A stretch of DNA of 64,000 bases from a virus. The stretch covers positions 42,895-106,894 of the IMG/VR virus record IMGVR_UViG_3300025168_000039; one strand, 5' to 3'. Shown piece after piece: positions 4,810 through 45,854 of the stretch. Position 1 is the stretch's first letter, and the number at the start of each line of letters is the position of its first letter. The position numbers and the translations under genes were made by a program. Below the pieces are notes generated by a model. That model was not told where the DNA came from. It saw nothing but the letters and a program-made list of their open reading frames with translations, and did no database searches.

Positions 4810-7800
4810 TATTTCTCTACCTCTACCAAAGGCTTCTGAATATATTCTACAAATATATTAGTTAACCCATCTTGTAATTTACTAGATAGTTCAGGGCTAA
4901 CCTGTCTATCTTCTAAAGCTTTAAATATACTCATATCCCCAATTAAATTATCAGGCATAAACACACCACTTTCTACACTGCTTGCGACATCTGCAATTAA
5001 TGGTAAAATTAATTCGTCGTTAGCAGTATACCAGAACTTATTTGTAGCTGCTTCTAAAACTCCACTTATACCTAATATTTTTGGCTTAGTTAAATCAGCT
5101 TCAGATTTACCTTTTGGTATTTCATAGTATTCAACATTTTTAAATTCATTAAGTCTCTTTGTAAATTTTTGCATACCTTTATATTTACGGTCTTGTAAAT
5201 TTTTATAGCTTTTTAAAAGCTGGTCTATATCTTCATTAGTTATTTCTCTTCTAGGAAGTTTTCTTACATCAGCTAAAAAATTATCTTTTGTTTTAGCTAT
5301 AGCTTTTAATCTACTAGACATGTCATAACCCATAGACTTTTGTACGTCTACGGTTATTGGTCGAATACCTGTCTTAACATAAAATTTTAAATCCGTAGAA
5401 CTTAATGGAAAGCCAGAAGCTCTTTGCCCCTGTCCTTCTCCTAAGAGTTCTTCTGAACTTACAGACTCCGCATATTGTCTAATAGCTTTAATAGTTCCTG
5501 GCTCTAAAAATTTTCCAATCTCCGTTAATGCTGATATAACTTTATCTTTAGTTGTGACACCTACTGCATCATCGTAAATTGGTTTACCTGTTTTCAGATT
5601 TGTTCCGCTTACAACATTAACTAATGCTTCTGTTAAAAACTTAGGAGATAGATATGCACCAGCAAGTCCCTTTGTTGCATTACCTACAGCATCATCTATT
5701 TCAGAGTCAGAAACAAATCCATTCTTCATTAACTTAGCTTGAAGCAAACGAAGAGGTGATTTAAGTACATCAAAAGTATCAGCAGATGTAGAGCCAATAT
5801 ACCTAGATGTTATTCTAGGGTCTGCTTGATTGTTATCTTTAACAAATGGTTGAAGCCAAAACTGTTTCGCACCCTTTGTCCAATCTGGAGATACAGCATT
5901 TACAAACTTTTTATTAGCTTCTGTTATTTGATAAGCATCTTCATTTTGACTAGCAACCATATCCCAACCACCAGCAACAACTCCGGCACCTGCGAATCTT
6001 CTTGCCCCATGTGCAATCAATGCAGGGTTTCCTGTTTTCGTTCCCTCCACTATGTCTTTCACACTAGTCTTTAAAATATTTTTAGTATTTCTTATTACCT
6101 CACTGGGAAACAATACATAGTTACCTATCAAAGGAGTCTTGGCTATTTCTCTAGCTAGTGGAGCAGCATCGCCATATGTAGGCATAGTCTCTCTAACATA
6201 TCTAGCAGCTCTTTCATCTAAATCATTATCATATATTTTTTTAGCTGCCTTACGTTTAATACTACGCTCTTTCATAATATTACTTATTGTTGGTCCTTCT
6301 TTAAATATCTTTTTTAAAGCTGCTCTTTCACTTTCATAAGCAACTAATTTTAGATAGGCATCAGGTTGACCATACAAAGAACCTAGCTTACTCATTGTTT
6401 TTCGATAAGCTTTGCTTACTGTGCCAGTGGCATTTTGCATTTGAGAAGCACCAGCCTTTATTAGTTCTCCAGTAACATCTTGCTCAATAACACCAAGCCT
6501 TCTTAGCTTTGCTAATTTTGCAACAGCTACAGGATTTTTTAAAGTAAGCTGATTTCCTAAAGTTCCTATTTCTTTTACTGCTGCTTTATAAGCAATCGGA
6601 TTTAAGAAGTGACCATTTGCAATAAGACTTTGAGTGCCACCAATAAGGTTTAGTGCATACGCAGGTAGATCAAGCAAAGTCTCTTTTGCCTGTGCTAGTG
6701 ATGCAGCATTAACCCAAATACTTCTAATTCTACCAGAGCTATTAAATAACTCAAGACCTTGATTAATAGCCCTACCCATCTCAGGACTTGTGTAGATATC
6801 TTTTAGTATTTGCCTTGAGTCACCTCCAAATTTTCCAATTGAATCTTTAGCAACTTGCTCTAAACCAAATTCAATATTTGGAGCAGAACCTTTTTGAAAG
6901 GTTGTTTTTACTGATGGTAATATAGGAAAGAAACCTTTTAAATCTACTTCTTTTCCTACATTTTCTCTAGCAAATTTTTCTACATCTTTTAAATATTTTA
7001 ATTCTGCTATTAATTTATTCTGTTGAATTAAACTAGTAGCAAGATTTTGTTTACCAGATTTATTTTGACCAAGCAAATCTAATACAGAATCATCTAAGTC
7101 TTGTTTTTTTCTTAAAACTTTTATAGTTGCGGGACGATATCCCTGTTGTGCAGTCCCACTAAATATTTTATCTATCAGAGGTCTATCCTCTTTAGACAAT
7201 CTATAAACCATGTTAGTAATAACACTATCAACATCAGCAGAATCAACTCCCTGCTTTTTTAAATATGATCTTGCGTTCTCTACCTTCGTAAGAAAAACAG
7301 GATCAGGAGATTTATCTAGAAGTGCCTTTTTAATTTCAGCATAATATTTAGGATTATTAGCAGATTGAAAAGTTCTAGATAAGTAGAAACCGTTTCGATC
7401 TCTATTAACTCCAATTTTTGCATTACCTGTTAATCCTAATTGAGTATTAATTAATGTTTCATTACTATTAATTTGTTTTTTAATATTATCTACTTGATCT
7501 AATACAGTATCAGGGATACCCCTTTCGACAAATGATTGTCTATTTTTAGCGCCAGAATTTATATATTCATTTAAAATATCTTCATCAACATCACTATCTT
7601 TAATTGATCGTTCTAAATCTTTTATCTGTTTTTTAATTTCAATTTCAGAACCAGCCTTTGACCTAGTTCTTTTTCTTGCAGCATCCGCTAAATCTTGCGA
7701 AAGATTAGCATCAGACCGTAATAGTTTTCCTGCAGCGGTATTTATTTTAGCAATCGGATCTTTTAATGGACGAAATAAGTTTCCTGCCCCAGTTTTTAAT

Positions 7801-9035
7801 CTAGCAATATTTTGCGTCGTAAAAAGTTTTTTAGCTCCAACTCCTATTGTTTTAAATGCCGCTGCACCAACAGCAGTGTCTGCTATCGCTCCAAAATATT
7901 TAAGAAGTTCGTCTTTTCTAGTAGTTGAATTTGGATTTACTCTAAACTTTTTAATTTCCTCTACTACAGATTCAGGTAAACTGTCTACCAATCCTAGATC
8001 AGCATTGGTTGCAAAGTCAATAAGTAGCCCTTGTTGTCCTTCGTTAAAATCTGTAATTTGTACAAAGCCTTGAACCACCCCTACGTTTGCACCACTAGCT
8101 TTTACTAATCTTTCTACTCTTTTAGAAAAATCTTTTCCTCTACGCTTTGCTATATAAGCAAGTCCTTTTCTAGCAAGTTTTGCGCCTATGCCAGCTATAG
8201 AAGCTAAAGCTATTAACTCGCTAACCATTTTCTCTTCATCGTTTAAATTAGGTTCTAATATTTCATTAACTTTTGCCACCGCTTTACCAAAAGGAGATTC
8301 TTTTAGTAGTTTAGCTGTTGCTGGATCTGTAATTGTTATTACAGACATTGCTATTTCACCGGGTGTTTTCCCTATTTCCAAAGCTGCTTTGCCGAAAATT
8401 CTTGCCGCTTGTCCTTGTCCATATACATTCATATAAATAGCTAAAAGTTTTCTTTCAGGTATTGTAAGAGATGCTGGGTCTTTCTTAGCTTTGTCCTGTA
8501 ATTTTTTTAGTAATTCAGTTCCTGCTTTACCTGCAACCTCAAGTGGTTTATTTTCTGTCTGCTCTGGAGTAGAGACTCCTTCTACTGAACCTTCTCCAGA
8601 TTTAATTGACTCTGAAAATATAATTCCAAATTCATTAGGCGTTTCTACTTCTGAAGAAACTCCAGCACCTTCTATTGGCACAGAGGTAGCCTCAACAGGA
8701 GGAGTAGCCTCAACAGGAGGAGTAGCCTGGACAGGGGGAGCCGTTTCAACAGGAGTAGATATAGATTGATCTACTGCTGAAATAAGTTCTTGAGGAGGAA
8801 CTTTTATAGGATTTGCTTTTATTAAAGGAACTTCAGGTTCTTTTACATCTACAGAAGGAGCTTCAGGTTCTTCTTTAGGTTTAAGCATATTAGAAGGAAC
8901 TTCTTTCCATTCCGCTCCGTTATATAAATACACCTGTCCTGTATCAGGATTTACTGCTTTTTCAGTTGGAATGTATTCTTTACCTTCCAACCTATGTCCC
9001 TCTCCATTATCTGGATTATAGGTTATTTCAGACAT
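4809..9035 (-). CDS. Large internal virion/ejection protein (1408 aa)
   Basis: Size, position at end of morphogenesis operon, helical composition; homolog at 60403-64000. Confidence 0.65.
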   Translation of the reverse strand: MSEITYNPDNGEGHRLEGKEYIPTEKAVNPDTGQVYLYNGAEWKEVPSNMLKPKEEPEAPSVDVKEPEVPLIKANPIKVPPQELISAVDQSISTPVETAPPVQATPPVEATPPVEATSVPIEGAGVSSEVETPNEFGIIFSESIKSGEGSVEGVSTPEQTENKPLEVAGKAGTELLKKLQDKAKKDPASLTIPERKLLAIYMNVYGQGQAARIFGKAALEIGKTPGEIAMSVITITDPATAKLLKESPFGKAVAKVNEILEPNLNDEEKMVSELIALASIAGIGAKLARKGLAYIAKRRGKDFSKRVERLVKASGANVGVVQGFVQITDFNEGQQGLLIDFATNADLGLVDSLPESVVEEIKKFRVNPNSTTRKDELLKYFGAIADTAVGAAAFKTIGVGAKKLFTTQNIARLKTGAGNLFRPLKDPIAKINTAAGKLLRSDANLSQDLADAARKRTRSKAGSEIEIKKQIKDLERSIKDSDVDEDILNEYINSGAKNRQSFVERGIPDTVLDQVDNIKKQINSNETLINTQLGLTGNAKIGVNRDRNGFYLSRTFQSANNPKYYAEIKKALLDKSPDPVFLTKVENARSYLKKQGVDSADVDSVITNMVYRLSKEDRPLIDKIFSGTAQQGYRPATIKVLRKKQDLDDSVLDLLGQNKSGKQNLATSLIQQNKLIAELKYLKDVEKFARENVGKEVDLKGFFPILPSVKTTFQKGSAPNIEFGLEQVAKDSIGKFGGDSRQILKDIYTSPEMGRAINQGLELFNSSGRIRSIWVNAASLAQAKETLLDLPAYALNLIGGTQSLIANGHFLNPIAYKAAVKEIGTLGNQLTLKNPVAVAKLAKLRRLGVIEQDVTGELIKAGASQMQNATGTVSKAYRKTMSKLGSLYGQPDAYLKLVAYESERAALKKIFKEGPTISNIMKERSIKRKAAKKIYDNDLDERAARYVRETMPTYGDAAPLAREIAKTPLIGNYVLFPSEVIRNTKNILKTSVKDIVEGTKTGNPALIAHGARRFAGAGVVAGGWDMVASQNEDAYQITEANKKFVNAVSPDWTKGAKQFWLQPFVKDNNQADPRITSRYIGSTSADTFDVLKSPLRLLQAKLMKNGFVSDSEIDDAVGNATKGLAGAYLSPKFLTEALVNVVSGTNLKTGKPIYDDAVGVTTKDKVISALTEIGKFLEPGTIKAIRQYAESVSSEELLGEGQGQRASGFPLSSTDLKFYVKTGIRPITVDVQKSMGYDMSSRLKAIAKTKDNFLADVRKLPRREITNEDIDQLLKSYKNLQDRKYKGMQKFTKRLNEFKNVEYYEIPKGKSEADLTKPKILGISGVLEAATNKFWYTANDELILPLIADVASSVESGVFMPDNLIGDMSIFKALEDRQVSPELSSKLQDGLTNIFVEYIQKPLVEVEK

Positions 9036-20736: not shown

Positions 20737-21492
20737 CTATGATGTAGCTCCAAAAACATTTCCACTATTTGTTACATTTACTGTTGCACCTGAATTTAAT
20801 CTAACTGCTTTTCCTGCTGCTCCTCCTGATCCACCTGAGCCAGCGACTCTACAGTTTGCATTTCCACCAGGACCACTACCACCAGCGCCGCCATTACCTA
20901 CATTACCCCAAGTTCCCCCAGTTCCTCCTGTTGAGGCTCCACCTGAAGAACCACTAGTTGCACTATTTGTGGGAGGATCATTAATACTTGCACCAGCACC
21001 TCCATTACCTCCTGTTAAATTAGTGCAATCACTACAACTCTGCGCTTCAGAATCATAGGTAGTACAACTACGGTAGCCACCACCACCACCGCCGCCTCCA
21101 CCACCGCCAGCAATGTTTGCACCAGAATTATTTCTAACACTTGCTGAAATATTTTCTAAGCTAATTGCATCTCCACCGTCTCCAGCAGCACCGCCATTAC
21201 TACCACTACCACCACCACCACCTGCACTACCTCCTCTACCAATAATATTACCATTATTAATTAAAGTAAAATTACTACCGGCAACAAGATGAGCAGTTAA
21301 AGCTGGTACATTACTAAGCTGACTAAAAACATTTACACCACTATTAACAATAACTGTTGCATCAATAGGGTCTATACCGTTCCAATCGTAACTACCTTGC
21401 AACACATTAGACAGATTATAATTTTCTGTATCTGAAGATATAATTAATGATTGACCTGTAGGTCTTCTGTTTGCAAAAAATAAAAATGGCAT
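20737..21492 (-). CDS. Glycine-rich receptor-binding adhesin (T-even gp38-like)
   Basis: LINNGNIIGRGG, NIAGGGGGGG polyglycine motifs; GKAV..VTNSGNVFGATS end. Confidence 0.7.
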   Translation of the reverse strand: MPFLFFANRRPTGQSLIISSDTENYNLSNVLQGSYDWNGIDPIDATVIVNSGVNVFSQLSNVPALTAHLVAGSNFTLINNGNIIGRGGSAGGGGGSGSNGGAAGDGGDAISLENISASVRNNSGANIAGGGGGGGGGGGYRSCTTYDSEAQSCSDCTNLTGGNGGAGASINDPPTNSATSGSSGGASTGGTGGTWGNVGNGGAGGSGPGGNANCRVAGSGGSGGAAGKAVRLNSGATVNVTNSGNVFGATS

Positions 21493-33692: not shown

Positions 33693-33875
33693 TTATACAA
33701 CTATAGCTCCAGTAATGAATGATGCTGCACCTACAATTAAAACTTTTTTCCATATACCACAAGGAGCTTGATGTCCTATAGGTAGGCAGTTACAGGAACC
33801 GCATCCCACAACATTTTTAAATTTATTACAATACTTATTAATTTTATTTTTAATTTTTCTAATTTGTTTTTCCAT
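33693..33875 (-). CDS. Small Cys-containing protein with C-terminal TM segment
   Basis: CGSCNC..C..WKKVLIVGAASFITGAIVV. Confidence 0.5.
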   Translation of the reverse strand: MEKQIRKIKNKINKYCNKFKNVVGCGSCNCLPIGHQAPCGIWKKVLIVGAASFITGAIVV

Positions 33876-36423
33876 TACTTAAGTCCTTTATAAGATTTGT
33901 AACAGTTTTCATGCTTTCCGATTCTATTTTTGTATCAGATGACATTTTATTTCCAGCTAATCTTGTAAGAAGTTCTGCAGCTTTATACGCATTATTATCG
34001 TCTAGCTTCTGTTCCTCTAAGGCTCCCTTCAATAAAGTCTCAATAGCTTTAATAGCATGGTCAGATTGATTCATCTCCATATCGGCTGCAAGTTTCTGTT
34101 GCTCCTTAGTGCCTTCTCCAATATACTTAATAACAATTTCATTCTCGTCAATATCTAATTCTCTATTTTTCAATGCAGCACTAGCAGCATCTTTAGCCAT
34201 CTGTGCTTGTAGCTTATCTCGTTCAACTTCAAGCTTCATAGTTTCAATTTGAACAAGCTGTTGTTCTGGTGTTGGTTGCATCATCTGTGGATTATTAGCT
34301 TGAAGAACTTGTTGTGCAGCTTGAGCCATAGCAAACTCAATCATATCTGATGTAATAGGCTGACCTTCTGGTACTTGATCTTTCATAGTTAGAGCAACAC
34401 CTTCAACCTGTTCCTTATACTTCATAACAGTATGTTCTTGAATATTAGCTTGTAGTACAGGAATAACTGATGCCATTAAAGGCTGACCACCACCCATAGG
34501 GTCTTGCATGAAAGACATCTTAACTTGAATATGTGCATCATGATTTTGGCCTGGAAAAGCTCCAATAGGTTTACCTTTAATTGCAACTTGAATATCTGAT
34601 AAAGGATCAAGAGGTTTAGGTTTTGTTTCAGGTGGAAGTATTAGATCAAGATTAGGCATGTTAGCTGCTTGGAGAATTGTTCTATTCAACTCTTCCATAT
34701 TAAACATACCAGGAGGAGCTTGTTGGGCTAACTGTAAAGCTAGCTGAGACAACATCATCCGATGAGCATTAGAAGGAATATTTGGGTCACTTACTGGGAC
34801 AATATCTACTCTTCCATCAAAATCTCTTTTTAGAACTTGTCGTGATACTCCCGGAACCTCAAATGGATATTCATTAGGCAGATAGTCATAATTAATCTGC
34901 GCTAATATTTTTAATTCTTCTCGTTGTGCGTTGTGAAGCCTTTTATGAATAGCTGAGAAAAATTTACTACTGGCTTCCAGCAGCGCCATCGTAGTACCTA
35001 CGGGACCATAAGAGGCGGCATCAGATACTACCTGTTCTGTTGAGTCAGCAAACTTCTGTCCAGCACCAATAACAAAATTGAGCATAGAAAGAAGAGTATT
35101 GGACGGCTCTTTATAAGGCAGCGGAACAATAGACTTAGATAAGTCCATTCCCGTTGCCTCAACTTCTTTAAACTCACCAGGAGATATCGGATCATTATCA
35201 CCAACAATTCTAACTCCTTTGGCTTTAAACCCTCCTGGCAGATTAGCAAATTGACCCGCATCCACTAACGCTCTCATAGCTGCCGTAGCAGTCATCGTTA
35301 GATTACCAAGGAAATGGATCAAGCCTAACCCATAGAAACCAAAGCCCGGAACATATTTGTAATGAACAAAGTGCATTACTTTTTGTCTTGTTTTATCGTC
35401 AGGTCTATAGTTTCTACGAATACTTAGAATTTGTTTTGATTGTTCTTCTAGTGTCACAATATAAGGAAGGGACACACCCTCTTCATGTTCAGAGTCTTCT
35501 GATAATTCAAGATAACAGTGCTGCTCTAGAAGAACATACTGATAATCAGAATCGGTTGTTTGAGCAAGACCTAAGACTGTATCTAACTTAGTTGCCATGG
35601 ATGATTGTTCAGGAACATAAGCTTCTGGTAAATCAATATCCCGATACATACCCACATCAATTTCCTTGATGAGGTCAGTTGGACTTCTATAAATTACATG
35701 AGTATATCTATCTGCTTTCCTTAGATTACTTGCATAGTATGATACATAGAATTGATCAATAGGAACAAACTCAGATACAGGACGCTCTAATGCAGCATCA
35801 TAATATGTTTTCTTAAAAGCGGAACCGATAATAGGTAGATGAAACAATAGCCGTTCTGATTCGTCAAAGTATTCCGGCATCTGTTCAGTTAGCTGATAGT
35901 TCATAAATTCTTGTACACGATTAGCCTGTTCCATCTTATCAGGAGTCTCGATACCTATTACTTGCGACTTAACTGGACCGGCTGCTGGAAATAATTCAAG
36001 CGAAGCCTTTGCCTGAAACTTAACGGCTGATTCAATAAGGAGAGGATGGACAGCGGTACAGGCTCCCTCAAAAGGTTCTGACGCATCTTGAAGCTTTAAT
36101 CCTAAAAGATCAAAGCCCCGTTCAAACATACTCTCCCATTCACTTCTAGAATCTCTATCAGATTCAAAGTTATCAAAAACTTTATTAGCTATTTCTTCTA
36201 GACCGTTATCGTCAACCTTATCTGCTAGGTCTTCAAACCATTCTTTAATATCTGGTTTAGCTTCTACCTCTATACCTTCTTCAAAATTTACAACTACCCC
36301 ACCGTCAGAATCAAGATCAAAACTTACATTATTTTCTATATCAATAGATGCACCATTACTTGTATCAAGCTCAATAATTTCTGCATCACCTTTTTGATCG
36401 AAGGGGTTTCGTTCAATCGCCAT
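33859..36423 (-). CDS. Portal protein (P22-like)
   Basis: PFEGAC.AVHPLLIES, GSAFKKTYYD, FVHYKYVPGFGFYGLGLIH, PVGTTMALLE. Confidence 0.9.
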   Translation of the reverse strand: MAIERNPFDQKGDAEIIELDTSNGASIDIENNVSFDLDSDGGVVVNFEEGIEVEAKPDIKEWFEDLADKVDDNGLEEIANKVFDNFESDRDSRSEWESMFERGFDLLGLKLQDASEPFEGACTAVHPLLIESAVKFQAKASLELFPAAGPVKSQVIGIETPDKMEQANRVQEFMNYQLTEQMPEYFDESERLLFHLPIIGSAFKKTYYDAALERPVSEFVPIDQFYVSYYASNLRKADRYTHVIYRSPTDLIKEIDVGMYRDIDLPEAYVPEQSSMATKLDTVLGLAQTTDSDYQYVLLEQHCYLELSEDSEHEEGVSLPYIVTLEEQSKQILSIRRNYRPDDKTRQKVMHFVHYKYVPGFGFYGLGLIHFLGNLTMTATAAMRALVDAGQFANLPGGFKAKGVRIVGDNDPISPGEFKEVEATGMDLSKSIVPLPYKEPSNTLLSMLNFVIGAGQKFADSTEQVVSDAASYGPVGTTMALLEASSKFFSAIHKRLHNAQREELKILAQINYDYLPNEYPFEVPGVSRQVLKRDFDGRVDIVPVSDPNIPSNAHRMMLSQLALQLAQQAPPGMFNMEELNRTILQAANMPNLDLILPPETKPKPLDPLSDIQVAIKGKPIGAFPGQNHDAHIQVKMSFMQDPMGGGQPLMASVIPVLQANIQEHTVMKYKEQVEGVALTMKDQVPEGQPITSDMIEFAMAQAAQQVLQANNPQMMQPTPEQQLVQIETMKLEVERDKLQAQMAKDAASAALKNRELDIDENEIVIKYIGEGTKEQQKLAADMEMNQSDHAIKAIETLLKGALEEQKLDDNNAYKAAELLTRLAGNKMSSDTKIESESMKTVTNLIKDLSNGKTN

Positions 36424-37041: not shown

Positions 37042-37070
37042 ATTATACCACTAAACTCTCCAGTATGCAA
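37042..37070 (-). promoter_or_regulatory. sigma70-type promoter
   Basis: TTGCAT-17nt-TATAAT with TGG extended -10, overlapping terL stop. Confidence 0.6.
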
Positions 37071-38616
37071 CTTTCTTTTGTCTACGGGGATTTACATCAT
37101 CTTCCCAGCTAGGATCATCTGGATGAGTTAGATGCCATGACTCTTTCATGTAATGCACAGCCATAGCTAAAGCATCTACCTGATCATCATGTCTACCGTT
37201 AGGAAAACTTAGTAGTTCTTCAATCAGATCATCTGCCCATTTTTTATTCTTCGGTATCCACAAGCGTCCCGCTTCTAACACCGGAGTTGCTGCGTATACT
37301 CTAGCTACCTTGTCTCTATCTGGTGTGTACTCTAGAATAGGCAAACCACCTCGTCGTAAATCTTGTATCAGTGATTGACCACTAGCTTTCTTTTCCACAA
37401 TACAAATATCAGGTCTATACTCTTCATGTAGATTTTGAGCTATCTTTCGGAGATCAGGATATTCAAATCTTCCTCTGGTATTTCCTAGTAGAATAAGATT
37501 ACTAGCAATATACTCTTCTCCTTCGTAGCTTTCTTCGGGCATCTGAAAGATACCCCATGTTTGAATAACGGAGAAGTCAGCACTACTCTTTGTCGAGAAG
37601 GCTGTATCTAATGTTTGAATAACAAAGTCACAGGTGGGAGGATCATCATATTCCCATCTTTGTATCCATCTCTTTTTTATTATTCCACCTTCTTCTGGTG
37701 TAGGATTCTGCATATACAATGAATCCCAGTACCTTGACCCATTACTTGCAATGATCTCTTCTTCATCAACTCGTAATACTTCATCAGGTTTCCACTCAGG
37801 AAAGTAAGAACTTCCTACAGGTAAGTCCAGAAGCTTTGATGCTTCTTCATCTATCCATGCAGGAATACGAACTACCTCCCATTTATGAGTGGCTTCCATA
37901 TCCATTACTTCTTGTTGTTTTAATAACCAACCACAAAGATCATCATGGTGGTATCGGGTATTCACAATTACAATAGACCCGTTAGGCATGATACGAGTAC
38001 GCAAACCTGCAGGATACCATTCCTTAATATACCGCCTACCCGCTTCAGAGAAACTATCTTCCTCTGACATAGCATCATCTAGTATTGCTATATGTGCTCC
38101 TCGTCCCGCAATCTGTGATCTAACACCAGCAGCATAGTAGGTTCCATTAAGATTTGTTTTCCATTTACCTGCCGCCCGTACATCCTGCCGTATTTGAACA
38201 TTAGGAAATATATTTTGAAACTGATCAGTGTTTACTACATCTCGAACTGATCTACCAAAGTCACTAGCTAACTGATCACTATGAGATATAGACATAATCT
38301 CATGTGTAGGATTATTACCTATATACCATGCTGGGAATATCTTGGAGCATATGACAGACTTGGAAGAGCGAGGAGGAAGAAAGATCATAAGTCTTTTAAT
38401 CTCTCCGTCCTTTACTCTCTGAAGTTTATCAGAAAGTAGCTTTATGTGTCTACCCATCTTCCAATCAGACACAAGAGTAGGAGCAACCATACGGACAAAG
38501 GACAAAAAGCTATCCTGTGATTCCTTTAAAACAAGATCATCCATTAATGTACTTAATGTCATCAATGTATTTACAGGATTTTCTTGATCCTTTATGTATT
38601 CTTCATTAATCTCCAT
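37051..38616 (-). CDS. terL: Terminase large subunit
   Basis: LPPRSSKS Walker A, AILDD Walker B, LDTAFS, VEKKASGQSL, HDDQVDA nuclease motifs. Confidence 0.95.
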   Translation of the reverse strand: MEINEEYIKDQENPVNTLMTLSTLMDDLVLKESQDSFLSFVRMVAPTLVSDWKMGRHIKLLSDKLQRVKDGEIKRLMIFLPPRSSKSVICSKIFPAWYIGNNPTHEIMSISHSDQLASDFGRSVRDVVNTDQFQNIFPNVQIRQDVRAAGKWKTNLNGTYYAAGVRSQIAGRGAHIAILDDAMSEEDSFSEAGRRYIKEWYPAGLRTRIMPNGSIVIVNTRYHHDDLCGWLLKQQEVMDMEATHKWEVVRIPAWIDEEASKLLDLPVGSSYFPEWKPDEVLRVDEEEIIASNGSRYWDSLYMQNPTPEEGGIIKKRWIQRWEYDDPPTCDFVIQTLDTAFSTKSSADFSVIQTWGIFQMPEESYEGEEYIASNLILLGNTRGRFEYPDLRKIAQNLHEEYRPDICIVEKKASGQSLIQDLRRGGLPILEYTPDRDKVARVYAATPVLEAGRLWIPKNKKWADDLIEELLSFPNGRHDDQVDALAMAVHYMKESWHLTHPDDPSWEDDVNPRRQKKVAYWRV

Positions 38617-38761
38617 AGATACTCTTTAGTATCTCTATAGAGTCTCTATAGAGATAACATAAAACCTTTTAAAAATTATTATTAATAATAAACATTATAA
38701 CAATTATTAATAATAAACGATAATAATAACTAATAACTGTTTGTTCGAATCTCTAGAGATT

Positions 38762-38790
38762 ATTATACAGGAGTATATAGATTCTGTCAA
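38762..38790 (-). promoter_or_regulatory. Consensus sigma70 promoter driving the late (terL) operon
   Basis: Perfect TTGACA-17nt-TATAAT on - strand. Confidence 0.8.
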
Positions 38791-39016
38791 GGCTCCCGCC
38801 TAAAATAATTAGGTTTAAATCATCATAATTTTATATAGATGAAATGACCCTCTTATTTTTGGTAAGTATATGGGGGGAGGGGTATATATATTATATAGCT
38901 GAGTCAATTTTTTTGGTGGGGGGTCGTATATTAAATAATCTCTATAGATTATTTAAAGACATGTGACATATCTGCAACACCCCCATGCGAATATGTGACA
39001 TATACATCACATCCAG

Positions 39017-39056
39017 GAAGATTCTTACAGAATCTATGAAGATTCTTACAGAATCT
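39017..39056. repeat. Tandem 19-bp repeat of a palindrome (21-bp period)
   Basis: GAAGATTCTTACAGAATCT x2; core AGATTCT-TAC-AGAATCT. Confidence 0.85.
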
Positions 39057-39090
39057 TTGGAGATAAAAAGAAATATCACCTTGCAAGGTT

Positions 39091-39141
39091 TTATTTTTTA
39101 TATTTAGAGAGATCAAAGTGATCTCTAAAGATAAAAAATAA
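39091..39141 (+). repeat. Hairpin element 0 (divergent member)
   Basis: TTATTTTTTAT-A-TTTAGA..GATCA-AAG-TGATC-TCTAAA-G-ATAAAAAATAA; A.G mismatch. Confidence 0.55.
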
Positions 39142-39249
39142 TATTAGATATCAACCGACTAACTACCAAACCCTGACTGTTGCAGTAATGCAACAACTGA
39201 TGAGATTCGAATAAACTTTGATGAAGTTCTTGACAGTCTATGATGAAAC

Positions 39250-39301
39250 TAATTAATAATCTATCTAGTGAGTTCTTACGAACTAGCTAGATGATTAATT
39301 A
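39250..39301 (+). repeat. Hairpin element 1
   Basis: TAATTAAT-A-ATCTA..TAGAT-G-ATTAATTA, 52 nt. Confidence 0.85.
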
Positions 39302-39322
39302 AAACTTAATTGGAGCAACCTG

Positions 39323-39490
39323 ATGACCAATATTCAATCCCTCAATTTCTATTTCTCCGAGCTAGACATGGAAGTATCTTCCTTCAATGGAGGTTATGAC
39401 CTCCACAATACAATTACCGGAGACCACATCACAACTTGTGATGATCTATGTGAAGCTGAGTATTTTCTATCTGCCATCCGTCAAAACTAA
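39323..39490 (+). CDS. Small early protein (55 aa)
   Basis: Not in ORF track; GGAG RBS; MTNIQSLNFYFSELDMEV...AIRQN; stop is start of hairpin 2. Confidence 0.7.
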   Translation: MTNIQSLNFYFSELDMEVSSFNGGYDLHNTITGDHITTCDDLCEAEYFLSAIRQN

Positions 39491-39539
39491 TTAATAATCT
39501 ACTACTTAGCTTTCTTTGAAAGCAGTAGATGATTAATTA
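39488..39539 (+). repeat. Hairpin element 2
   Basis: TAATTAAT-A-ATCTACT-[ACTTA]-GCTTTC-TTT-GAAAGC-AGTAGAT-G-ATTAATTA, 52 nt. Confidence 0.85.
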
Positions 39540-39551
39540 AATAACTGGAAA

Positions 39552-39731
39552 ATGATTATGAAAATCCAAATGAATATGCGTTCTGACTATGGTCAGTACC
39601 GTTACTATCCAGCTTGTGACAAATCAAAGCTCTTAACAGAGCTTACAAATCAAAAGACGTTAACACCTGCCAATATGAGAACTATACAGAAACTCGGCAT
39701 CGAAGTTGAAATGCTAAGTCACAAACTGTAA
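39552..39731 (+). CDS. Small early protein (59 aa)
   Basis: Not in ORF track; YG...YYPACDKSKLLTELTNQKTLT...IQKLG resembles a common small phage protein. Confidence 0.75.
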   Translation: MIMKIQMNMRSDYGQYRYYPACDKSKLLTELTNQKTLTPANMRTIQKLGIEVEMLSHKL

Positions 39732-39734
39732 GGG

Positions 39735-39787
39735 TAATTAAATATATTCTGGTAGACTATCTTAGGATACCAGAATATTATTAATTA
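39735..39787 (+). repeat. Hairpin element 3
   Basis: TAATTAA..ATATTCTGGTA-[GACTA]-TC-TTAG-GA-TACCAGAATAT..TTAATTA, 53 nt. Confidence 0.85.
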
Positions 39788-39822
39788 TCTTTTAACCAAC
39801 CGCCAACCGATAGGAGATTATC

Positions 39823-40041
39823 ATGGCAAAACGTACCGAGAAGATTACCCAAGCTTTCCGCAAAACCCGTTGGGTTAAGTTGAAAGAAGGCTATGAAGTT
39901 TATAAACAAGCCGTCGAAGACGGCCTACCAATCCGAGTAGTTCACCCTTCCGGTTCTTTTAAAGTTATAAAGAACACCGAGAACCTTCCGAAGGAAGAAG
40001 GTCTTAGATTTAAAGCTGGGGAAGTCGAGGCGGTAGCCTAA
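39823..40041 (+). CDS. Small early protein (72 aa)
   Basis: AGGAGA RBS; between hairpins 3 and 4. Confidence 0.75.
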   Translation: MAKRTEKITQAFRKTRWVKLKEGYEVYKQAVEDGLPIRVVHPSGSFKVIKNTENLPKEEGLRFKAGEVEAVA

Positions 40042-40048
40042 CCTCGGG

Positions 40049-40099
40049 TAATTAATAATCCCCTAGTAGACTATAAGGATACTAGGGGATGATTAATTA
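40049..40099 (+). repeat. Hairpin element 4
   Basis: TAATTAAT-A-ATCCCCTAGTA..TACTAGGGGAT-G-ATTAATTA, 51 nt; extends via CTCGGG/TCTGAG with G.U pairs. Confidence 0.85.
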
Positions 40100-40135
40100 T
40101 CTGAGACATTAATAACTTGATTAATGGAGATTATT

Positions 40136-40291
40136 ATGACTATTCCAGATGATATGAACGTACCCTTAAATCGTAGAGATTTAAGTAAACCGGAGAATAT
40201 TCGTTGGCTAGTTCGTAATCTAGCAGTCAAAAACAGGGAACATCCTAGCTTTAATAAAATAATCAAAGAGTTAATAAATAGGAGTAAATAA
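40136..40291 (+). CDS. Small early protein (51 aa)
   Basis: Not in ORF track; GGAGA RBS; MTIPDDMNVPLNRRD..NIRWLVRNLAVKN. Confidence 0.7.
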   Translation: MTIPDDMNVPLNRRDLSKPENIRWLVRNLAVKNREHPSFNKIIKELINRSK

Positions 40292-40295
40292 TATT

Positions 40296-40385
40296 ATGAC
40301 TTTCCCAATTGTGGTATCGACAATACTATTTATTGTATTCGTGGGAATAGCATATATACTATACAAAGATATTAAAAAACTTTAG
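40296..40385 (+). CDS. 29-aa single-TM peptide
   Basis: AGGAG RBS; MTFPIVVSTILFIVFVGIAYILYKDIKKL. Confidence 0.55.
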   Translation: MTFPIVVSTILFIVFVGIAYILYKDIKKL

Positions 40386-40439
40386 GGTTACGCTAGGCAT
40401 ACACTCAATATCTGAATACTTTTTAAATGGAGTTTAAAA

Positions 40440-40607
40440 ATGAGTTTAGAGAAAGATGCGGAAAAATATGTGAAGGCTTTAAATAGTCCCGCAAATGGTT
40501 GGGGACAGTACATCATTAATGGTGAGCAGAGCCATGTATTCTTAGGTAAAATGTTTGAACAATATGGACAAGATGAAGTTAATAACTTTCTAGATAAGGA
40601 TAATTAA
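40440..40607 (+). CDS. Small early protein (55 aa)
   Basis: GGAG RBS; MSLEKDAEKY..NGWGQY.. Confidence 0.65.
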   Translation: MSLEKDAEKYVKALNSPANGWGQYIINGEQSHVFLGKMFEQYGQDEVNNFLDKDN

Positions 40608-40609
40608 GC

Positions 40610-41311
40610 ATGTCCACACTATCCCCAGACCATAATGCTATTGTTAATAGCACTACTTTGTACCAGAAAAATATACATGAAGTTGATAGTTATCCACATA
40701 AAGTTATTAAAGCAAGCACCAATAAGAAGCTTGGCCGAAAAGTATTACGAGGTAAACTAAACGGCTATCCAATGTATACATTGACTTTAGTGGAAAGAGA
40801 GACTTGCACTAATGCTTGTGAGCATTGGGCTGATTGCTATGGGAACAATATGCCATTCGGTCATAGATTTAAAACTAAAGGACTAATGCCAAGGCTCAAG
40901 TTAGAGCTTGATGCTTTAGATAAAAAGCATCCCAATGGATACCTTGTTAGGCTGCACATTCTAGGGGACTTTTACAGTGTTCTATATGTAAAGTTTTGGG
41001 AAACCCAGCTACATAATAGACCGGCTTTAAATATCTATGGATATTCCCGTCATCACTATGGCTCTACTAATACCAGCAAACCATCAAGAAATATTGGACA
41101 AGCTTTGCTTGATCTGAGGGATAACATAGGCTTTGAAAGATTTGCTGTACGATTTAGCTCTCTGCCTTCCGATACCTTATCGGCCAATACAGAACACAAC
41201 TCGACAGCTAATGCTATTACTTGTCTAGTACAAGTAGATAAGAGTGATAGTTGTGGTGACTGTACACTGTGCTGGACTACTAAAAAACCTATTACTTTTC
41301 TTGATCACTAA
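40610..41311 (+). CDS. GP88-like Fe-S/radical-SAM-related protein
   Basis: TCTNACEHWADCYG, VRLHILGDFYS, C-term C..SCGDCTLCW. Confidence 0.7.
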   Translation: MSTLSPDHNAIVNSTTLYQKNIHEVDSYPHKVIKASTNKKLGRKVLRGKLNGYPMYTLTLVERETCTNACEHWADCYGNNMPFGHRFKTKGLMPRLKLELDALDKKHPNGYLVRLHILGDFYSVLYVKFWETQLHNRPALNIYGYSRHHYGSTNTSKPSRNIGQALLDLRDNIGFERFAVRFSSLPSDTLSANTEHNSTANAITCLVQVDKSDSCGDCTLCWTTKKPITFLDH

Positions 41312-41391
41312 TGCTTTAATAAGGAAAAATTATGGTTAAATTAAATCCTGCTTATATTATTACTGTTGTTTCTTGTTAGGAATATAAAACT

Positions 41392-41538
41392 ATGACAAAA
41401 TATACCGAATTAGAACTGAGAGAAGTCATGTTCTACATGGATTTTAAAACAGTTTTAGAGGCTAGGGAATATATGGAAAACAATGACGCTGAATTATCCA
41501 TTCAAAACGAAACGGAATTTCGCCCCGGTAACATGTAA
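41392..41538 (+). CDS. Small early protein (48 aa)
   Basis: Preceded by GGAATATAAAACT; not in ORF track. Confidence 0.55.
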   Translation: MTKYTELELREVMFYMDFKTVLEAREYMENNDAELSIQNETEFRPGNM

Positions 41539-41567
41539 CCACATACTTTTAAAGGGAATATAAAACT

Positions 41568-41690
41568 ATGATAAATGTAATTATAAAAGCTACACTTTTA
41601 ACTTTTCTTTTAGGAGCAGGTATATTATATTTCGATATGATCTTTAGCACTTCGAATACCCTGTTAACCAATATTAATTATTCTAAGTAG
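41568..41690 (+). CDS. 40-aa membrane peptide
   Basis: Same 17-bp initiation region GGAATATAAAACTATGA as 41392; hydrophobic core. Confidence 0.5.
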   Translation: MINVIIKATLLTFLLGAGILYFDMIFSTSNTLLTNINYSK

Positions 41691-41722
41691 AGTTATCTTA
41701 CGATACTTAGAATGATTAATAT
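41671..41722 (+). repeat. Hairpin element 5
   Basis: ATATTAAT-T-ATTCTAAGTA..TACTTAGAAT-G-ATTAATAT with 5' bulge and TTAC loop, 52 nt. Confidence 0.8.
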
Positions 41723-41753
41723 AAAGTATCTCAACCACATTGGAGTGAATACA

Positions 41754-41951
41754 ATGTCTTTAACTACCATAATGCAACATGATGTTAAGTCTATTAATAC
41801 AACGCAAAGAAATCATCAGGATTTTACAACAGTCTCTGTCCGTTTTGTAACGGAGGAAGGTGACGGCGGAGAAATTACTTTCTTTATAGATAATAAAGAA
41901 AATTTAGATAATATAGACCTAGCTCCTTCCGAGATTATAGTAGTAGACTAA
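41754..41951 (+). CDS. Small early protein
   Basis: GGAG RBS before MSLTTIMQHDV; ORF track start 41712 lies inside hairpin. Confidence 0.65.
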   Translation: MSLTTIMQHDVKSINTTQRNHQDFTTVSVRFVTEEGDGGEITFFIDNKENLDNIDLAPSEIIVVD

Positions 41952-42133
41952 TGTCTATTTCAGTCTACGACTTTGTATTAATTAGAAAAGATGTCAGACA
42001 AAAACAAGGTCGCTGGACTATGGAAGATGACATCCGAATGGATATGCTAGAAGCTGGCTACAATCCGGCCAGCCGTCTAGACATAGAAGAATACTGGAAA
42101 GAAATATTTGGAGAAGATGAAAATGAAATATAA
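41951..42133 (+). CDS. Small hypothetical protein
   Basis: Coupled ORF; DIRMDMLEAGYNP..DIEEYW. Confidence 0.65.
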   Translation: MSISVYDFVLIRKDVRQKQGRWTMEDDIRMDMLEAGYNPASRLDIEEYWKEIFGEDENEI

Positions 42134-42371
42134 AATATTAATTATACTATGCGCTGCTTTTCTTGGAGGATGTGCCGCTCCGCCTATAGTTCTATTATCG
42201 GCTGGTGCTACCGCTGGAGTAAAAGGGGTGGTAGACGATATCGAACAAGATGTTAAAATTAAAAAGTTACAAAACAGAGCAGAACACCTTGAGAAAGCTA
42301 TGAAATTTTACTTAACTACAATGGCATCAGAAAGAGATGAAAACCTATGTTATCTCTTAGATGCAGAATAA
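42123..42371 (+). CDS. Putative lipoprotein
   Basis: MKYKILIILCAAFLGGC lipobox-like; approximate start. Confidence 0.55.
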   Translation: MKYKILIILCAAFLGGCAAPPIVLLSAGATAGVKGVVDDIEQDVKIKKLQNRAEHLEKAMKFYLTTMASERDENLCYLLDAE

Positions 42372-42394
42372 ATAACTTAAACTAGGAGACTAAA

Positions 42395-43357
42395 ATGTTT
42401 GATACCAATAGATTTTCTACATCATCTTTCGCCGCTTCACTTGCTCAAAAAGGGTATAATATGTTAGATCACCTCACCACCACTAATAATCGATCTATCT
42501 TTTTTAAAGTAAATGAGCAACAAGTTTCTGGACATTCTACAGGAACTGTAGCAGAGAAGTACAAGATGCTTTCCCGTGGCACCCCACCCTTGCAACCAGA
42601 AGAATGTTTATCGATAGTTAACAAAAACTATCGTGTGGTAGAAAATGAAGAGATTATTATGCCAATGCAAGAGCAGATGGTTAATCACTTTGATCCCTCT
42701 GTTTTAGCAGACATTCAAATAAAAGATCACATTGCTAAAAATGGTTCTGTATGCTTTGCGGAATACATTTTACCTAAAATGAAAGGTACTGTTGAAACAA
42801 AAACAGGACATAAAACAGAGGTTGGACTTAGATTTATTCTAAAAAATACCTTTGATGGATCGTCAAGTGTTGTGTTCTATGGTGGTGTTATTGACTTCTT
42901 CTGCACCAATGGTATGATCAGTGGTGAATATGATGTAACAAAGAAACGTCATACTAAAAACTTTAGTGTCGATGGCTTCCTTAGTGCATTTGATAGTGCT
43001 ATTGCCCGTCATGGTTGGATGGTTGATAAGTATCAGAAGTGGGCTGACCAAGGGATAAATAATACTATGAAAGTCCAAGAGTTATTTCGTACTCTAACGA
43101 GTGGTAGTACCGACGAACCTAAAAAGAAAAATACTTTATCTGATAGATTGTTTGCTCAATATATAGATGAGACACATGAACGAGGCAGCAATGTATTCTC
43201 TTTAGTATCTGCTATGACCCACTATGGTAGTCATGGGGATGGTAGGTTTAACTTGCGTAAAAACTCTGGACCTGATACACTGTTTAAGCGTCAACAAAGT
43301 GTCAGTAAATGGATAAACTCTGAGGCTTTTGAAAACTTTCTTGAGGTAGCTGCATGA
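42395..43357 (+). CDS. DUF932-like phage/plasmid protein
   Basis: IVNKNYRVVENEE, NTFDGS, FFCTNGMI, H..NF, MTHYGSH. Confidence 0.7.
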   Translation: MFDTNRFSTSSFAASLAQKGYNMLDHLTTTNNRSIFFKVNEQQVSGHSTGTVAEKYKMLSRGTPPLQPEECLSIVNKNYRVVENEEIIMPMQEQMVNHFDPSVLADIQIKDHIAKNGSVCFAEYILPKMKGTVETKTGHKTEVGLRFILKNTFDGSSSVVFYGGVIDFFCTNGMISGEYDVTKKRHTKNFSVDGFLSAFDSAIARHGWMVDKYQKWADQGINNTMKVQELFRTLTSGSTDEPKKKNTLSDRLFAQYIDETHERGSNVFSLVSAMTHYGSHGDGRFNLRKNSGPDTLFKRQQSVSKWINSEAFENFLEVAA

Positions 43358-43572
43358 AAAGAAAAACTAAAACGATTTTTCAATTAACATTTATAACTGT
43401 TGCTATAATTTTAGCTGCAGTTGCATGTGGTAAAGAGGAGAGTGGGGTTATCCCACCTCCTTTACCTCCCTCTTTCTATAATAAACCTGATAAGGTTGTA
43501 CCACCTGTACCACCTGTACCACCTGTAGTACCTGTAGAACGTACTGTATTTTGTTGTCAAATGGGTTTATGA
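43354..43572 (+). CDS. Pro-rich putative lipoprotein
   Basis: ILAAVAC lipobox-like; VPP repeats from 9-bp GTACCACCT units. Confidence 0.5.
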   Translation: MKRKTKTIFQLTFITVAIILAAVACGKEESGVIPPPLPPSFYNKPDKVVPPVPPVPPVVPVERTVFCCQMGL

Positions 43573-44752: not shown

Positions 44753-45313
44753 ATGAAAACATACAAAGTCTATGATAGTGCTATAGAAAAAGAACATTGT
44801 AATAATATAATTAAGTTTATAAAAGATTTAGATTTAAATAACTCAAAAATAAACGAGGGTGAGGGTGATGTTGTTAACGAAGAAAAGCGGCAATCCCAAA
44901 CTGCTTTTTTAAATTCAAAAGAATTTGTAGATATTTTTAGTTTGTATACTGGCTTTGCTAAAGAAGAATGTATGTGGAATTATAATATAACTAATTATGA
45001 TACACCTCAAGTAAGTATATATTCTAAGAATGATAAGTACACTTGGCACCATGACATGCTTCCTGATAGTGATGGACTTGTACGCAAGTTGAGTGTATGT
45101 ATAACCTTAAATGATAATTTTAAGGGAGGAGACTTTCAGATACAGAAATTTGTTTCTCCAGTTGAGAAGAAAAGATTTACTACAGTAAAAGAGATGCGAA
45201 ATGCAGGGAGCATTATTGTGTTTCCTTCTTTTATGTGGCATCAAATAACTCCAGTTAAGTACGGCGACAGATATTCTATTGTCTGTTGGTACAAAGGACC
45301 ACAATTTATGTGA
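44753..45313 (+). CDS. 2OG-Fe(II) oxygenase (prolyl-hydroxylase/PKHD-type)
   Basis: YTWHHD (HxD), RKLS, GGDF, IIVFPSFMWHQITPV..G.RYS.V.W. Confidence 0.85.
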   Translation: MKTYKVYDSAIEKEHCNNIIKFIKDLDLNNSKINEGEGDVVNEEKRQSQTAFLNSKEFVDIFSLYTGFAKEECMWNYNITNYDTPQVSIYSKNDKYTWHHDMLPDSDGLVRKLSVCITLNDNFKGGDFQIQKFVSPVEKKRFTTVKEMRNAGSIIVFPSFMWHQITPVKYGDRYSIVCWYKGPQFM

Positions 45314-45319
45314 GGGATT

Positions 45320-45619
45320 ATGTTACAGTCATTAAAAAATATTACTAAGGATATTAAATTAAAAGAAAAAGAGTTAAGTGGACGACCTGTTGGGATATTC
45401 TTATCATCAGCAAAGAGTTCGGAGCTATTTAACGAACTAAATAAAATAGATGAGCGGTTAGAACAGGACTTAATCTATTATAGAAAAACAATTATAGATA
45501 TATTAGATGATGTTAATTCTATTAAGTTTTTAAATTTAAATCAGGAACGGTCCTTACATAAAGTAGCAACACAATTAAATGTTTTGTTTGACGAAATAAC
45601 TGCATCGCAGGATTCATAA
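45320..45619 (+). CDS. Hypothetical protein
   Basis: ORF with GAGG RBS. Confidence 0.55.
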   Translation: MLQSLKNITKDIKLKEKELSGRPVGIFLSSAKSSELFNELNKIDERLEQDLIYYRKTIIDILDDVNSIKFLNLNQERSLHKVATQLNVLFDEITASQDS

Positions 45620-45620
45620 A

Positions 45621-45854
45621 ATGGATGACTTAGATATTTTAAAAAGAAATGTACTTGAGTTGAATACACAATTATTTGGTGAACGTAACCCAACGATTAC
45701 AGTCAAGACATACAAGACTAACACCTACGCCCATGAAGTTGAGATACTCGGACCAAGCAAAGTTATTTACTCGCCAGATAAACCATTATCGTGTGGTGCT
45801 AGGTTGTGGATTGAAACACATAGCGAGGTTGTGGCTGACGGACAGTCAGTTTAA
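45621..45854 (+). other. Apparently chimeric ORF marking a possible genome junction
   Basis: N-term coiled MDDLDILKRNVLELNTQL joined to the C-terminal part (GERNP.ITVKTYK..YAHEVEILG..KPLSCGAR.WIET) of a common phage protein lacking its usual N-terminus. Confidence 0.5.

Follow-up and report, generated by a model that had tools for sequence, protein, structure and literature searches.

The early region and its stem-loops

The window considered here, 64,000 nucleotides corresponding to bases 42895-106894 of the 106,894-bp IMG/VR virus record IMGVR_UViG_3300025168_000039, carries between 39250 and 41722 an array of five stem-loops of about 52 nt (E1 to E5), which punctuate small genes and which, in related phages, mark the places where single genes come and go. 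The structural genes of this phage, including those for the large terminase (TerL; 37051-38616), the portal (33859-36423) and an ejection protein, are encoded on the minus strand, and the early and replication genes, among them those for a GP88-family protein, a DUF932 protein, a family A DNA polymerase and a ribonucleotide reductase, follow on the plus strand from about 39320. Since the early and replication genes begin there and the structural genes occupy the opposite strand, the array stands at the head of the early operon, directly past the divergent control region (38617-39250). The phage itself, of roughly 55 kb, is an uncultured member of an abundant marine group; its TerL is only 39% identical to that of its nearest cultured relatives, the Pelagibacter phages HTVC023P and HTVC027P, and a comparison with 50,697 phage records gave no similar DNA except one 44-nt match.

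A covariance model was built from the window elements and then searched in the record and in relatives. In the whole record it gives exactly six matches, all on the plus strand, five of them inside the window and one outside. The first, E1 (39250-39301; 66.4 bits), is separated by 21 nt from the ATG with which the first early gene starts; E2 (39488-39539; 61.6 bits) has a 5-nt ACUUA bulge and a GCUUUC/GAAAGC apex; in E3 (39735-39787; 61.9 bits, -26.8 kcal/mol) the lower stem is lengthened by the flanks AAGGG/UCUUU via G.U pairs; E4 (40049-40099) folds at -37.7 kcal/mol (z = -8.9); and E5 (41671-41722; 62.8 bits) has the variant arms ATATTAAT/ATTAATAT. The sixth match, at genome position 35020-35069, stands 13 nt before a 553-aa primase/helicase-like gene. 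The simple pattern TAATTAAT-N30-42-ATTAATTA is found four times in the window, against 0.01 expected; three of these matches are E1, E2 and E4, and the fourth, at 21441, forms no hairpin.

Every copy lies on the coding strand, between the upstream stop codon and the next Shine-Dalgarno site. The stop codon falls within the 5' arm at E2, whose first three bases are TAA, and at E5, where it is the TAG of a 40-aa open reading frame (ORF), and it precedes the arm by 3-7 nt at E3 and E4; from the end of the hairpin to the next ATG there are 12-36 nt, with a GGAG in between. An earlier reading of the window made from its letters alone (hereafter the sequence-only reading) had proposed the five elements at these coordinates, elements 2-5 at or just after a stop codon and close to the next start, and all of this holds, with fold z-scores from -5.7 to -8.9. 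It had also listed a weaker element at 39091-39141; this is a real, degenerate AU-armed leader hairpin on the plus strand (z = -4), but it is not matched by the covariance model. In more distant relatives an E2-like hairpin (L018:1544-1605, 41.7 bits) is the positional counterpart of this leader hairpin in the alignment of the control region.

The 106.9-kb record itself looks like a pair of related genomes of 51-56 kb, collinear and 65-72% identical in nucleotide sequence, with a terminase, a portal and replication genes in each; they are joined at a 491-bp stretch (window 45187-45677; genome 33357-33847, outside the window) whose two copies are 99.8% identical. One of the hairpin-carrying relatives is by itself a complete genome, of 56,002 bp and with terminal repeats; the record is therefore either a chimeric assembly across the 491-bp repeat or the product of one genome's insertion into a related one, and the assignment of the sixth hairpin to one genome or the other depends on how this repeat is resolved.

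Structure, covariation and strand

Two scans of IMG/VR, one by pattern and one by terminase, provided 103 loci, in which the covariance model identifies 44 copies of the hairpin, 39 of them distinct, in about 13 related phage contigs; the carriers are close relatives with TerL identity of at least 93%, plus several contigs obtained from the pattern scan alone. The shared structure is a helix of about 24 bp in total, interrupted by a 1x1 mismatch at a fixed place and by a bulge in the 5' strand. The outer stem consists of 8 bp, AU-only, formed by TAATTAAT and ATTAATTA, which are the ends of 37 of the 39 distinct copies; inward of it comes a single unpaired position that is A.G in 24 copies, otherwise U.U, A.A or U.G, and that is paired (A-U, C-G) in three. 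The inner stem, of 7-11 bp, differs in sequence between copies, a bulge of 3-5 nt is situated on the 5' side of the hairpin, and the apical stem, of 4-6 bp, is mostly capped by C-UUAC-G. This is the anatomy that the sequence-only reading had described from the window, namely invariant outer arms, a one-nucleotide defect at a fixed position, a variable but paired inner stem, a 5' bulge and an apical hairpin.

Folded as RNA, the five elements of the window reach -17 to -38 kcal/mol, and 0 of 200 shuffles fold equally well. In the alignment of the 39 distinct copies, 13 of the 18 pairs have changed on both sides and 91.7% of the cells are paired; these values are reached in none of 500 shuffles, and the slid controls are 27-50% paired. 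As neither the shuffles nor the slid controls match such double-sided changes and such a degree of pairing, the hairpin is under selection, not only for pairing, as in the covarying inner stem, but also for the sequences of arms and loop; the unpaired position is conserved as well. The covariance model had been named beforehand as the way to examine the elements, and it has returned both covarying pairs and homologous copies in relatives.

The preference for one strand is real but moderate: the sense strand is the better folder in 32 of the 39 distinct copies, by 4.1 kcal/mol on average, and all model matches score higher on the coding strand. At gathering thresholds, Rfam gives only a tRNA in the window, and at E <= 5 the region yields only weak microRNA and snoRNA look-alikes, which are generic hairpins; there is no Rfam match to a hammerhead, despite the leader words CUGAUGA/GAAAC.

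Distribution among related phages

The covariance-model search shows that the family is missing from most relatives at 72% TerL identity, and among 185,579 prokaryote species genomes the simple arm pattern has 40 matches, 0 of which fit the model and which are chance occurrences in AT-rich DNA. Because most of the relatives at 72% TerL identity are devoid of this family, with other hairpin families found in some, and because the matches in species genomes are chance, the hairpin family is specific to one phage lineage. Even the sister genome of the same record has no hairpin of the family, and the relative L042 carries at the same place another hairpin family, with the arms CTAATTAA/TTAATTAG; in L056, at 72-74% TerL identity, the TAATTAAT arms are kept and the interior is different. 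Since relatives at 72% TerL identity carry a different hairpin family in the early region, hairpin-punctuated early regions are general in the phage group, the family differing from lineage to lineage.

Two further observations concern these distant relatives. Contigs of the L039 type (72% TerL identity) have unrelated long AATCACAAAC... hairpins in the early region; in L039, at about 6820-8250 on the minus strand, and in a further terminase relative, these are long perfect hairpins of the form (A)ATCACAAAC(T/C)NTCAAGTCT(T/C)TTGGGACTTGA..., often straight after a TATAAT-like word. The hairpin before the primase/helicase gene is retained in the diverged relative L172 (5769-5827; G002:C1:9768-9826), with the arms CTATTTAAT/ATTAAATAG and a covaried interior (CCCATACAG/CTGTATGGG vs CCTACAG/CTGTAGG), and GAGGAG and an ATG come directly after it.

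Gene content between the stem-loops

In the window, the order of hairpins (H) and genes is H-fam0-H-fam4-H-fam1-H, all three genes being early ORFans on the plus strand: E1 and E2 enclose fam0 (39323-39490, 55 aa), which all 11 relatives compared have; E2 and E3 enclose fam4 (39552-39731, 59 aa), for which several of them have no gene or a different one; and fam1 (39823-40041, 72 aa) lies between E3 and E4. This layout varies by single units in the relatives. The fam4 gene is missing in L010, L011 and L030, and its place is taken by an unrelated 73-aa ORF in L012 and by fam30 in L018 and L013; an additional H-fam11 unit is found ahead of fam0 in L018, L011 and L030, and an additional H-fam32 unit in L022 and L014; L013 and L022 show, moreover, empty hairpin-hairpin pairs. 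Homology between contigs breaks at the hairpins. In L019, fam4 is enclosed by two identical 54-mers with identical 17-nt leaders, and L010 has one such hairpin and no fam4; near-identical hairpins bracket single genes in L019, L023 and L013.

The hairpins themselves are exchanged as well. The exact E1 52-mer is found in L013 and L022, where it stands before fam1 with unrelated flanks, and other identical or near-identical hairpins have flanks that are unrelated on one or both sides. At the E4 site of L023, a relative with 98% TerL identity, the flanks are kept and the interior is replaced by a near-copy of that of E3. Gene order is otherwise collinear, the differences being insertions, deletions, replacements and conversions, with no free permutation. 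The hairpins are, then, junctions where relatives gain, lose or replace single ORFan genes and swap hairpin interiors; the variation in gene content between hairpins that the sequence-only reading had proposed to look for in relatives takes the form of single-gene insertion, deletion and replacement, with the breakpoints at the hairpins. Its image of one hairpin for each gene applies to the first three genes, but not to the six ORFs between E4 and E5, which have no hairpin among them.

These six genes are tightly packed on the plus strand (40136-41690), include the gene for the GP88-family protein (40610-41311, plus strand, 233 aa) and end at E5; past it, an ORFan gene of 65 aa (41754-41951, plus strand) starts after 31 nt, behind a GGAG site. 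The small ORFs flanking the hairpins are, on their coding signature, real genes: among the homologues of fam0 (11) and of fam1 (8), changes are in excess at third codon positions and motifs are conserved. Ten of the small proteins were compared with Pfam and PHROG and none has a match, so that they are ORFans. The structural model of fam0 is an alpha-beta3-alpha fold with a predicted local distance difference test score (pLDDT) of 92.8, without any match in PDB at E <= 0.001, the best row being the dGTPase inhibitor gp1.2 of T7 at E = 0.71, far from significant; the fam1 model (pLDDT 70.9) has no PDB match at E <= 0.001 either.

Control region, promoters and terminators

A TTGACA box (39230-39235, plus strand), 14 nt before E1, is the candidate -35 box of the last early promoter. 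It is found 13-14 nt upstream of the first hairpin in nine of ten aligned relatives (in L014 as TTGCCA) and also in the distant L056, and the word AATAAT in the 5' arm of E1 follows it after 19 nt (18 nt in some relatives). At most internal hairpins, the -35 match at that distance is 3-4/6, which is background, and the upstream sequence is coding; TTGAAA or TTTACA stands about as far upstream of a few internal copies. The region has 22 promoter-like sites, against 21.1 expected from shuffles. The internal hairpins are thus not promoters, most of them having no -35-like box.

They have also been considered, and rejected, as intrinsic terminators, since the base of the stem is not GC-rich and no U-tract follows: a terminator scan of 38500-43500 lists no hairpin of the family, all having AU-only stem bases and no U-tract, and canonical terminators are present elsewhere in the record.

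Directly before the TTGACA box stands a small covarying leader hairpin, AACUU-UGAUG-AAGUU (39214-39228, plus strand), which in relatives reads AGCCCUU-GAUG-AAGGGCU and shows the compensatory changes CCTTT/AAAGG, CCCTT/AAGGG and CCCCT/AGGGG. The leader as a whole (39196-39249) is strongly conserved in all relatives and contains three TGATGA words (CTGATGAG, TTGATGAA, ATGATGAA); the GATGA word is also the 3' arm of the hairpins (GATGATTAATTA), its G being the unpaired base. Further upstream in the control region, at 39018-39057, the palindrome AAGATTCTTACAGAATCT occurs in two tandem copies 22 bp apart, and its TTCTTAC recurs in the apical loop of the hairpins (GTTCTTACGAAC); these palindromes resemble operators, and a binding protein common to them and the hairpins could be hinted at. 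The divergent control region also has, at 38860-38925, the G-runs GGGGGGAGGGG and TTTTTTTGGTGGGGGG together with TGTGACATAT repeats, the G-run adjoining a T-run being conserved in relatives; possible roles are termination on the terminase side and the marking of an origin or a terminus.

Enzymes and partner proteins

Enzymes that might act on the hairpins were sought by protein family. The tyrosine recombinase family PF00589 is absent from the record and from five relatives, including the complete 56-kb genome, in a search in which all control genomes matched; in the record, neither a Y1 transposase (PF01797) nor an encoded RNase III was found, and the Nop domain PF01798 is absent. A T7-type RNA polymerase was likewise not detected in the record, the test being weak as the control genomes cannot match that family. 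With no polymerase, RNase III or recombinase found in the record to act at the hairpins, host enzymes would be needed. A hairpin promoter of the N4 type, read by a virion polymerase, is unlikely because the large virion proteins have no polymerase match. As for a partner protein, none was found among the shared early proteins: fam0 and fam1, which all carriers have in common, match no Pfam or PHROG family and no PDB structure at E <= 0.001.

Interpretation

The explanation favoured here, held with about even confidence, is a double one, in which the elements form stem-loops between the cistrons of the early mRNA and are processed or protected in the manner of the T7 RNase III sites, and their arms serve in addition as recombination junctions comparable to those of the promoter-early stem-loops (PeSLs) of T4-type phages. 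The elements are lineage-specific, directional stem-loops in the intercistronic gaps of an early operon that is most likely transcribed by the host RNA polymerase. In the polycistronic early RNA, the bulged helix of about 24 bp would be cut by a double-strand-specific host nuclease of the RNase III type or, alternatively or additionally, would block 3' exonucleases; by either route the outcome would be a separate, stabilised message for each small gene, as with the early mRNA of T7. The position of the elements, their strand and their shape all fit such processing or stabilising sites. At the same time, the invariant arms, of 8-12 nt, together with the adjoining ribosome-site leader, may provide the homology for copy-choice or homologous recombination, both between hairpins within a genome and between co-infecting relatives, and early genes would be shuffled in this way, as PeSLs mediate the same kind of insertions and deletions (PMC2839356).

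Several points weigh against this explanation, mainly against its RNA half. The core helix includes 14 G.U cells against 11 A.C cells, hardly more, and the argument for the plus-strand RNA, which the sequence-only reading had drawn from G.U extensions, therefore comes mainly from the flank extensions and the folding energies: the G.U signal is weak in the core, and the better folding of the sense strand stands. RNase III requires no particular sequence, so that it does not explain why TAATTAAT/ATTAATTA and the CUUACG loop are invariant; this invariance points instead to a sequence-specific partner or to a role at the DNA level. Nor does RNase III account for an exchange of interiors that is precise to the hairpin, and it is the invariance of arms and loop, together with this exchange, that keeps alive the readings in which the elements act as DNA or bind a protein. 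If the TTGACA before E1 is a working promoter, the transcript would start inside E1 and the full E1 helix would not be formed. Finally, a nearly continuous helix of 24 bp would be cut by RNase III on both strands, which would remove the hairpin and leave none in place for protection.

The hairpins might, alternatively, act mainly as DNA, being extruded as single-stranded hairpins or cruciforms whose arms are sites of structure-specific exchange; genes and interiors would be moved by copy-choice template switching or by a nuclease or recombinase, and the system would be an analogue of attC sites that dispenses with the integrase. This is unlikely. In its favour, the layout resembles that of attC sites in that the arms are conserved, the centre varies but stays paired, a fixed position is unpaired and the bulge is on one side only; identity between copies ends exactly at the arms, as in the identical 52-mers with unrelated flanks and in the swapped E4 interior of L023; the near-identical hairpins around single genes in L019, L023 and L013 and the empty pairs of L013 and L022 are accommodated; and the sequence of the arms is invariant even at the 72-74% TerL identity of L056. 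The attC-like mechanism put forward by the sequence-only reading is not supported, as neither the record nor the complete 56-kb relative has a tyrosine recombinase, the record has no Y1 transposase and attC core sequences are absent. Gene order is otherwise collinear, with insertions, deletions and replacements instead of free permutation; the duplicated unit often includes the ribosome site and the start codon, which resembles ordinary homologous exchange; and the elements sit strictly between stop codon and ribosome site, as an RNA element needs to.

In its most developed form, this idea leads to an integrase-independent cassette system of phages, in which a structure-guided exchange crosses over exactly at the 8-bp arms of the folded single-stranded hairpin, and copy-choice at stalled forks, or a phage or host nuclease, swaps early genes and hairpin interiors between co-infecting phages. 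Such a system is unlikely; if it existed, it would be a functional analogue of integrons for the host-takeover genes of phages.

It is improbable that the elements are composite cassettes of the PeSL type, each with its own host-type early promoter, in which AATAAT would be the -10 box, and with attenuation of the transcription arriving from upstream. The first hairpins do have TTGACA (TTGCCA in L014) 13-14 nt upstream and AATAAT 18-19 nt after it, the PeSL stem-loop can itself overlap the -10 box (PMC2839356), ORFan genes follow downstream and insertions and deletions occur at the repeats; TTGAAA or TTTACA, at a similar distance from a few internal copies, would add to this. However, a spacer of 18-19 nt, the background values of 3-4/6 for the -35 box at most internal hairpins, whose 35 upstream nucleotides are coding sequence of varying genes, and the number of promoter-like sites (22 vs 21.1 expected) do not suggest a promoter in each unit, and a GC-rich stem with a U-tract behind it is lacking.

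Quite improbable, too, is that the elements serve as binding sites for a sequence-specific phage protein that times or shuts off early expression, acting on RNA (as a translational repressor, a boxB-type antiterminator or a processing nuclease) or on DNA. Invariant arms and an exposed CUUA(C/G)G, conserved in the loop or bulge across copies, would be natural in a binding site, as would the lineage-specific replacement of hairpin families (in L042, in contigs of the L039 type, and none in the sister genome) and the recurrence of TTCTTAC in the two tandem palindromes at 39018-39057; but binding alone does not account for the long covarying inner stem, and a candidate protein is missing, fam0 and fam1 matching no family or solved fold. 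That the elements are selfish miniature palindromes, of the kind of repetitive extragenic palindromic (REP) sequences or miniature inverted-repeat transposable elements (MITEs), spread in intergenic gaps without any function for the phage, is very improbable in spite of their discrete 52-nt units, palindromic ends and identical copies at unrelated sites, for no transposase or REP-associated tyrosine transposase (RAYT) was found encoded, 0 of the 40 pattern matches in the species genomes are model matches, the copies are confined to the early operon in a single orientation, the compensatory changes show selection for pairing, and the site before the primase/helicase gene is kept, with a covaried interior, in a diverged relative.

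The early genes of phages are the main store of uncharacterised host-takeover and anti-defence functions, and their turnover is poorly understood beyond T4-type phages; a modular turnover of such genes is now seen in an abundant group of uncultured marine phages, at a junction element that, unlike PeSLs, is a long covarying AU-armed hairpin without a promoter of its own. What is gained is a compact 52-nt RNA or DNA element with clear variants and a covariance model with which early-gene junctions can be located in metagenomic phage contigs; if the exchange is precise to the hairpin, it would point to a general, integrase-free shuffling of phage genes.

Comparison with known systems

The TIGR (tandem interspaced guide RNA) arrays share with the hairpins the phage-borne repeats with conserved edges and loop and two variable segments; their units, however, are 36 nt long and in tandem, with no genes between, have spacers that are not mutually complementary and lie beside a Nop-domain Tas protein (PMC12045711). 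A TIGR array is accordingly rejected for the present elements, which are 200-300 nt apart with real genes between them and no Nop domain. REP sequences and bacterial interspersed mosaic elements (BIMEs) are short repeated intergenic palindromes too, and rearrangement hot spots; REPs are chromosomal, 20-40 nt long, have a GTAG head and are linked to RAYT genes, and transcribed REP elements can stabilise the upstream mRNA. The record has no Y1 transposase and none of the 40 species-genome pattern matches fits the model, so a REP identity is rejected for want of both the transposase and chromosomal model matches.

The attC sites of integrons, and the clusters of attC sites lacking integron integrases (CALIN), are, like the hairpins, imperfect palindromes whose ends are conserved and whose variable centre stays paired, with extrahelical bases at fixed places; in both there is one site for each small, co-oriented and mostly ORFan gene after a single promoter, and the cassette content varies between relatives. 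Of three attC features examined, the imperfect-palindrome structure was present and the other two, the integrase and the core sites, were lacking: the core sites R'' RYYYAAC and R' GTTRRRY are absent from the ends of the hairpins, and an integron integrase or any other tyrosine recombinase is absent from the record and from the five relatives searched. The elements are, in addition, 52 nt long, against the usual 57-141 nt of attC sites, and confined to one phage lineage.

The RNase III sites of T7 early mRNA (R0.3, R0.5, R1, R1.1 and R1.3) provide a parallel on the side of expression. When the T7 intergenic regions were folded, the early sites formed a hairpin family with conserved arms and a variable apex; they are, like the present elements, intergenic hairpins of roughly 50-60 nt in an early polycistronic operon served by the host polymerase, placed between a stop codon and the next ribosome site, with about two helical turns and a helix defect at a fixed position, although here the operon is deduced from co-orientation and the single -35 box. 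The two families differ in sequence, as no motif is common to the T7 AAGGUCRCUC...GAGUGGCCUU and the arms described here, and in shape, the T7 sites having a larger asymmetric internal loop and GC-rich upper stems, in contrast to the nearly continuous helix with an AU-only base found here. No role of T7 RNase III sites as cassette junctions is known.

For the cassette behaviour, the closest published analogue is the PeSL, a mobile regulatory cassette of T4-type phages (Arbiol et al. 2010, PMC2839356; Comeau et al. 2014, PMC4122927), which is defined by a sigma-70 consensus promoter, AT-rich in its upstream part, and has a stem-loop, often polyG/polyC, that is an effective terminator and may overlap the -10 box (PMC2839356). 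In both cases, a small early ORFan gene with its Shine-Dalgarno site starts after a repeated intergenic stem-loop, close relatives differ by insertions, deletions and replacements that have the repeats as their limits, the two repeats around a gene may be almost the same and the repeat holds a stable stem-loop, here covarying and with z from -5.7 to -8.9. The promoter that each PeSL carries is not a feature of the present hairpins, where a conserved -35 box precedes only the first element; the stem-loop is here an AU-armed, bulged helix of about 24 bp with a covarying interior and no U-tract; and the phage that bears it is a marine phage of roughly 55 kb and not a T4-like myovirus. The elements thus behave like PeSLs in evolution and probably resemble T7 RNase III sites in expression; the general design is already known from PeSL cassettes and T7 stem-loops, and what is new is the hairpin family and the phage group that carries it.

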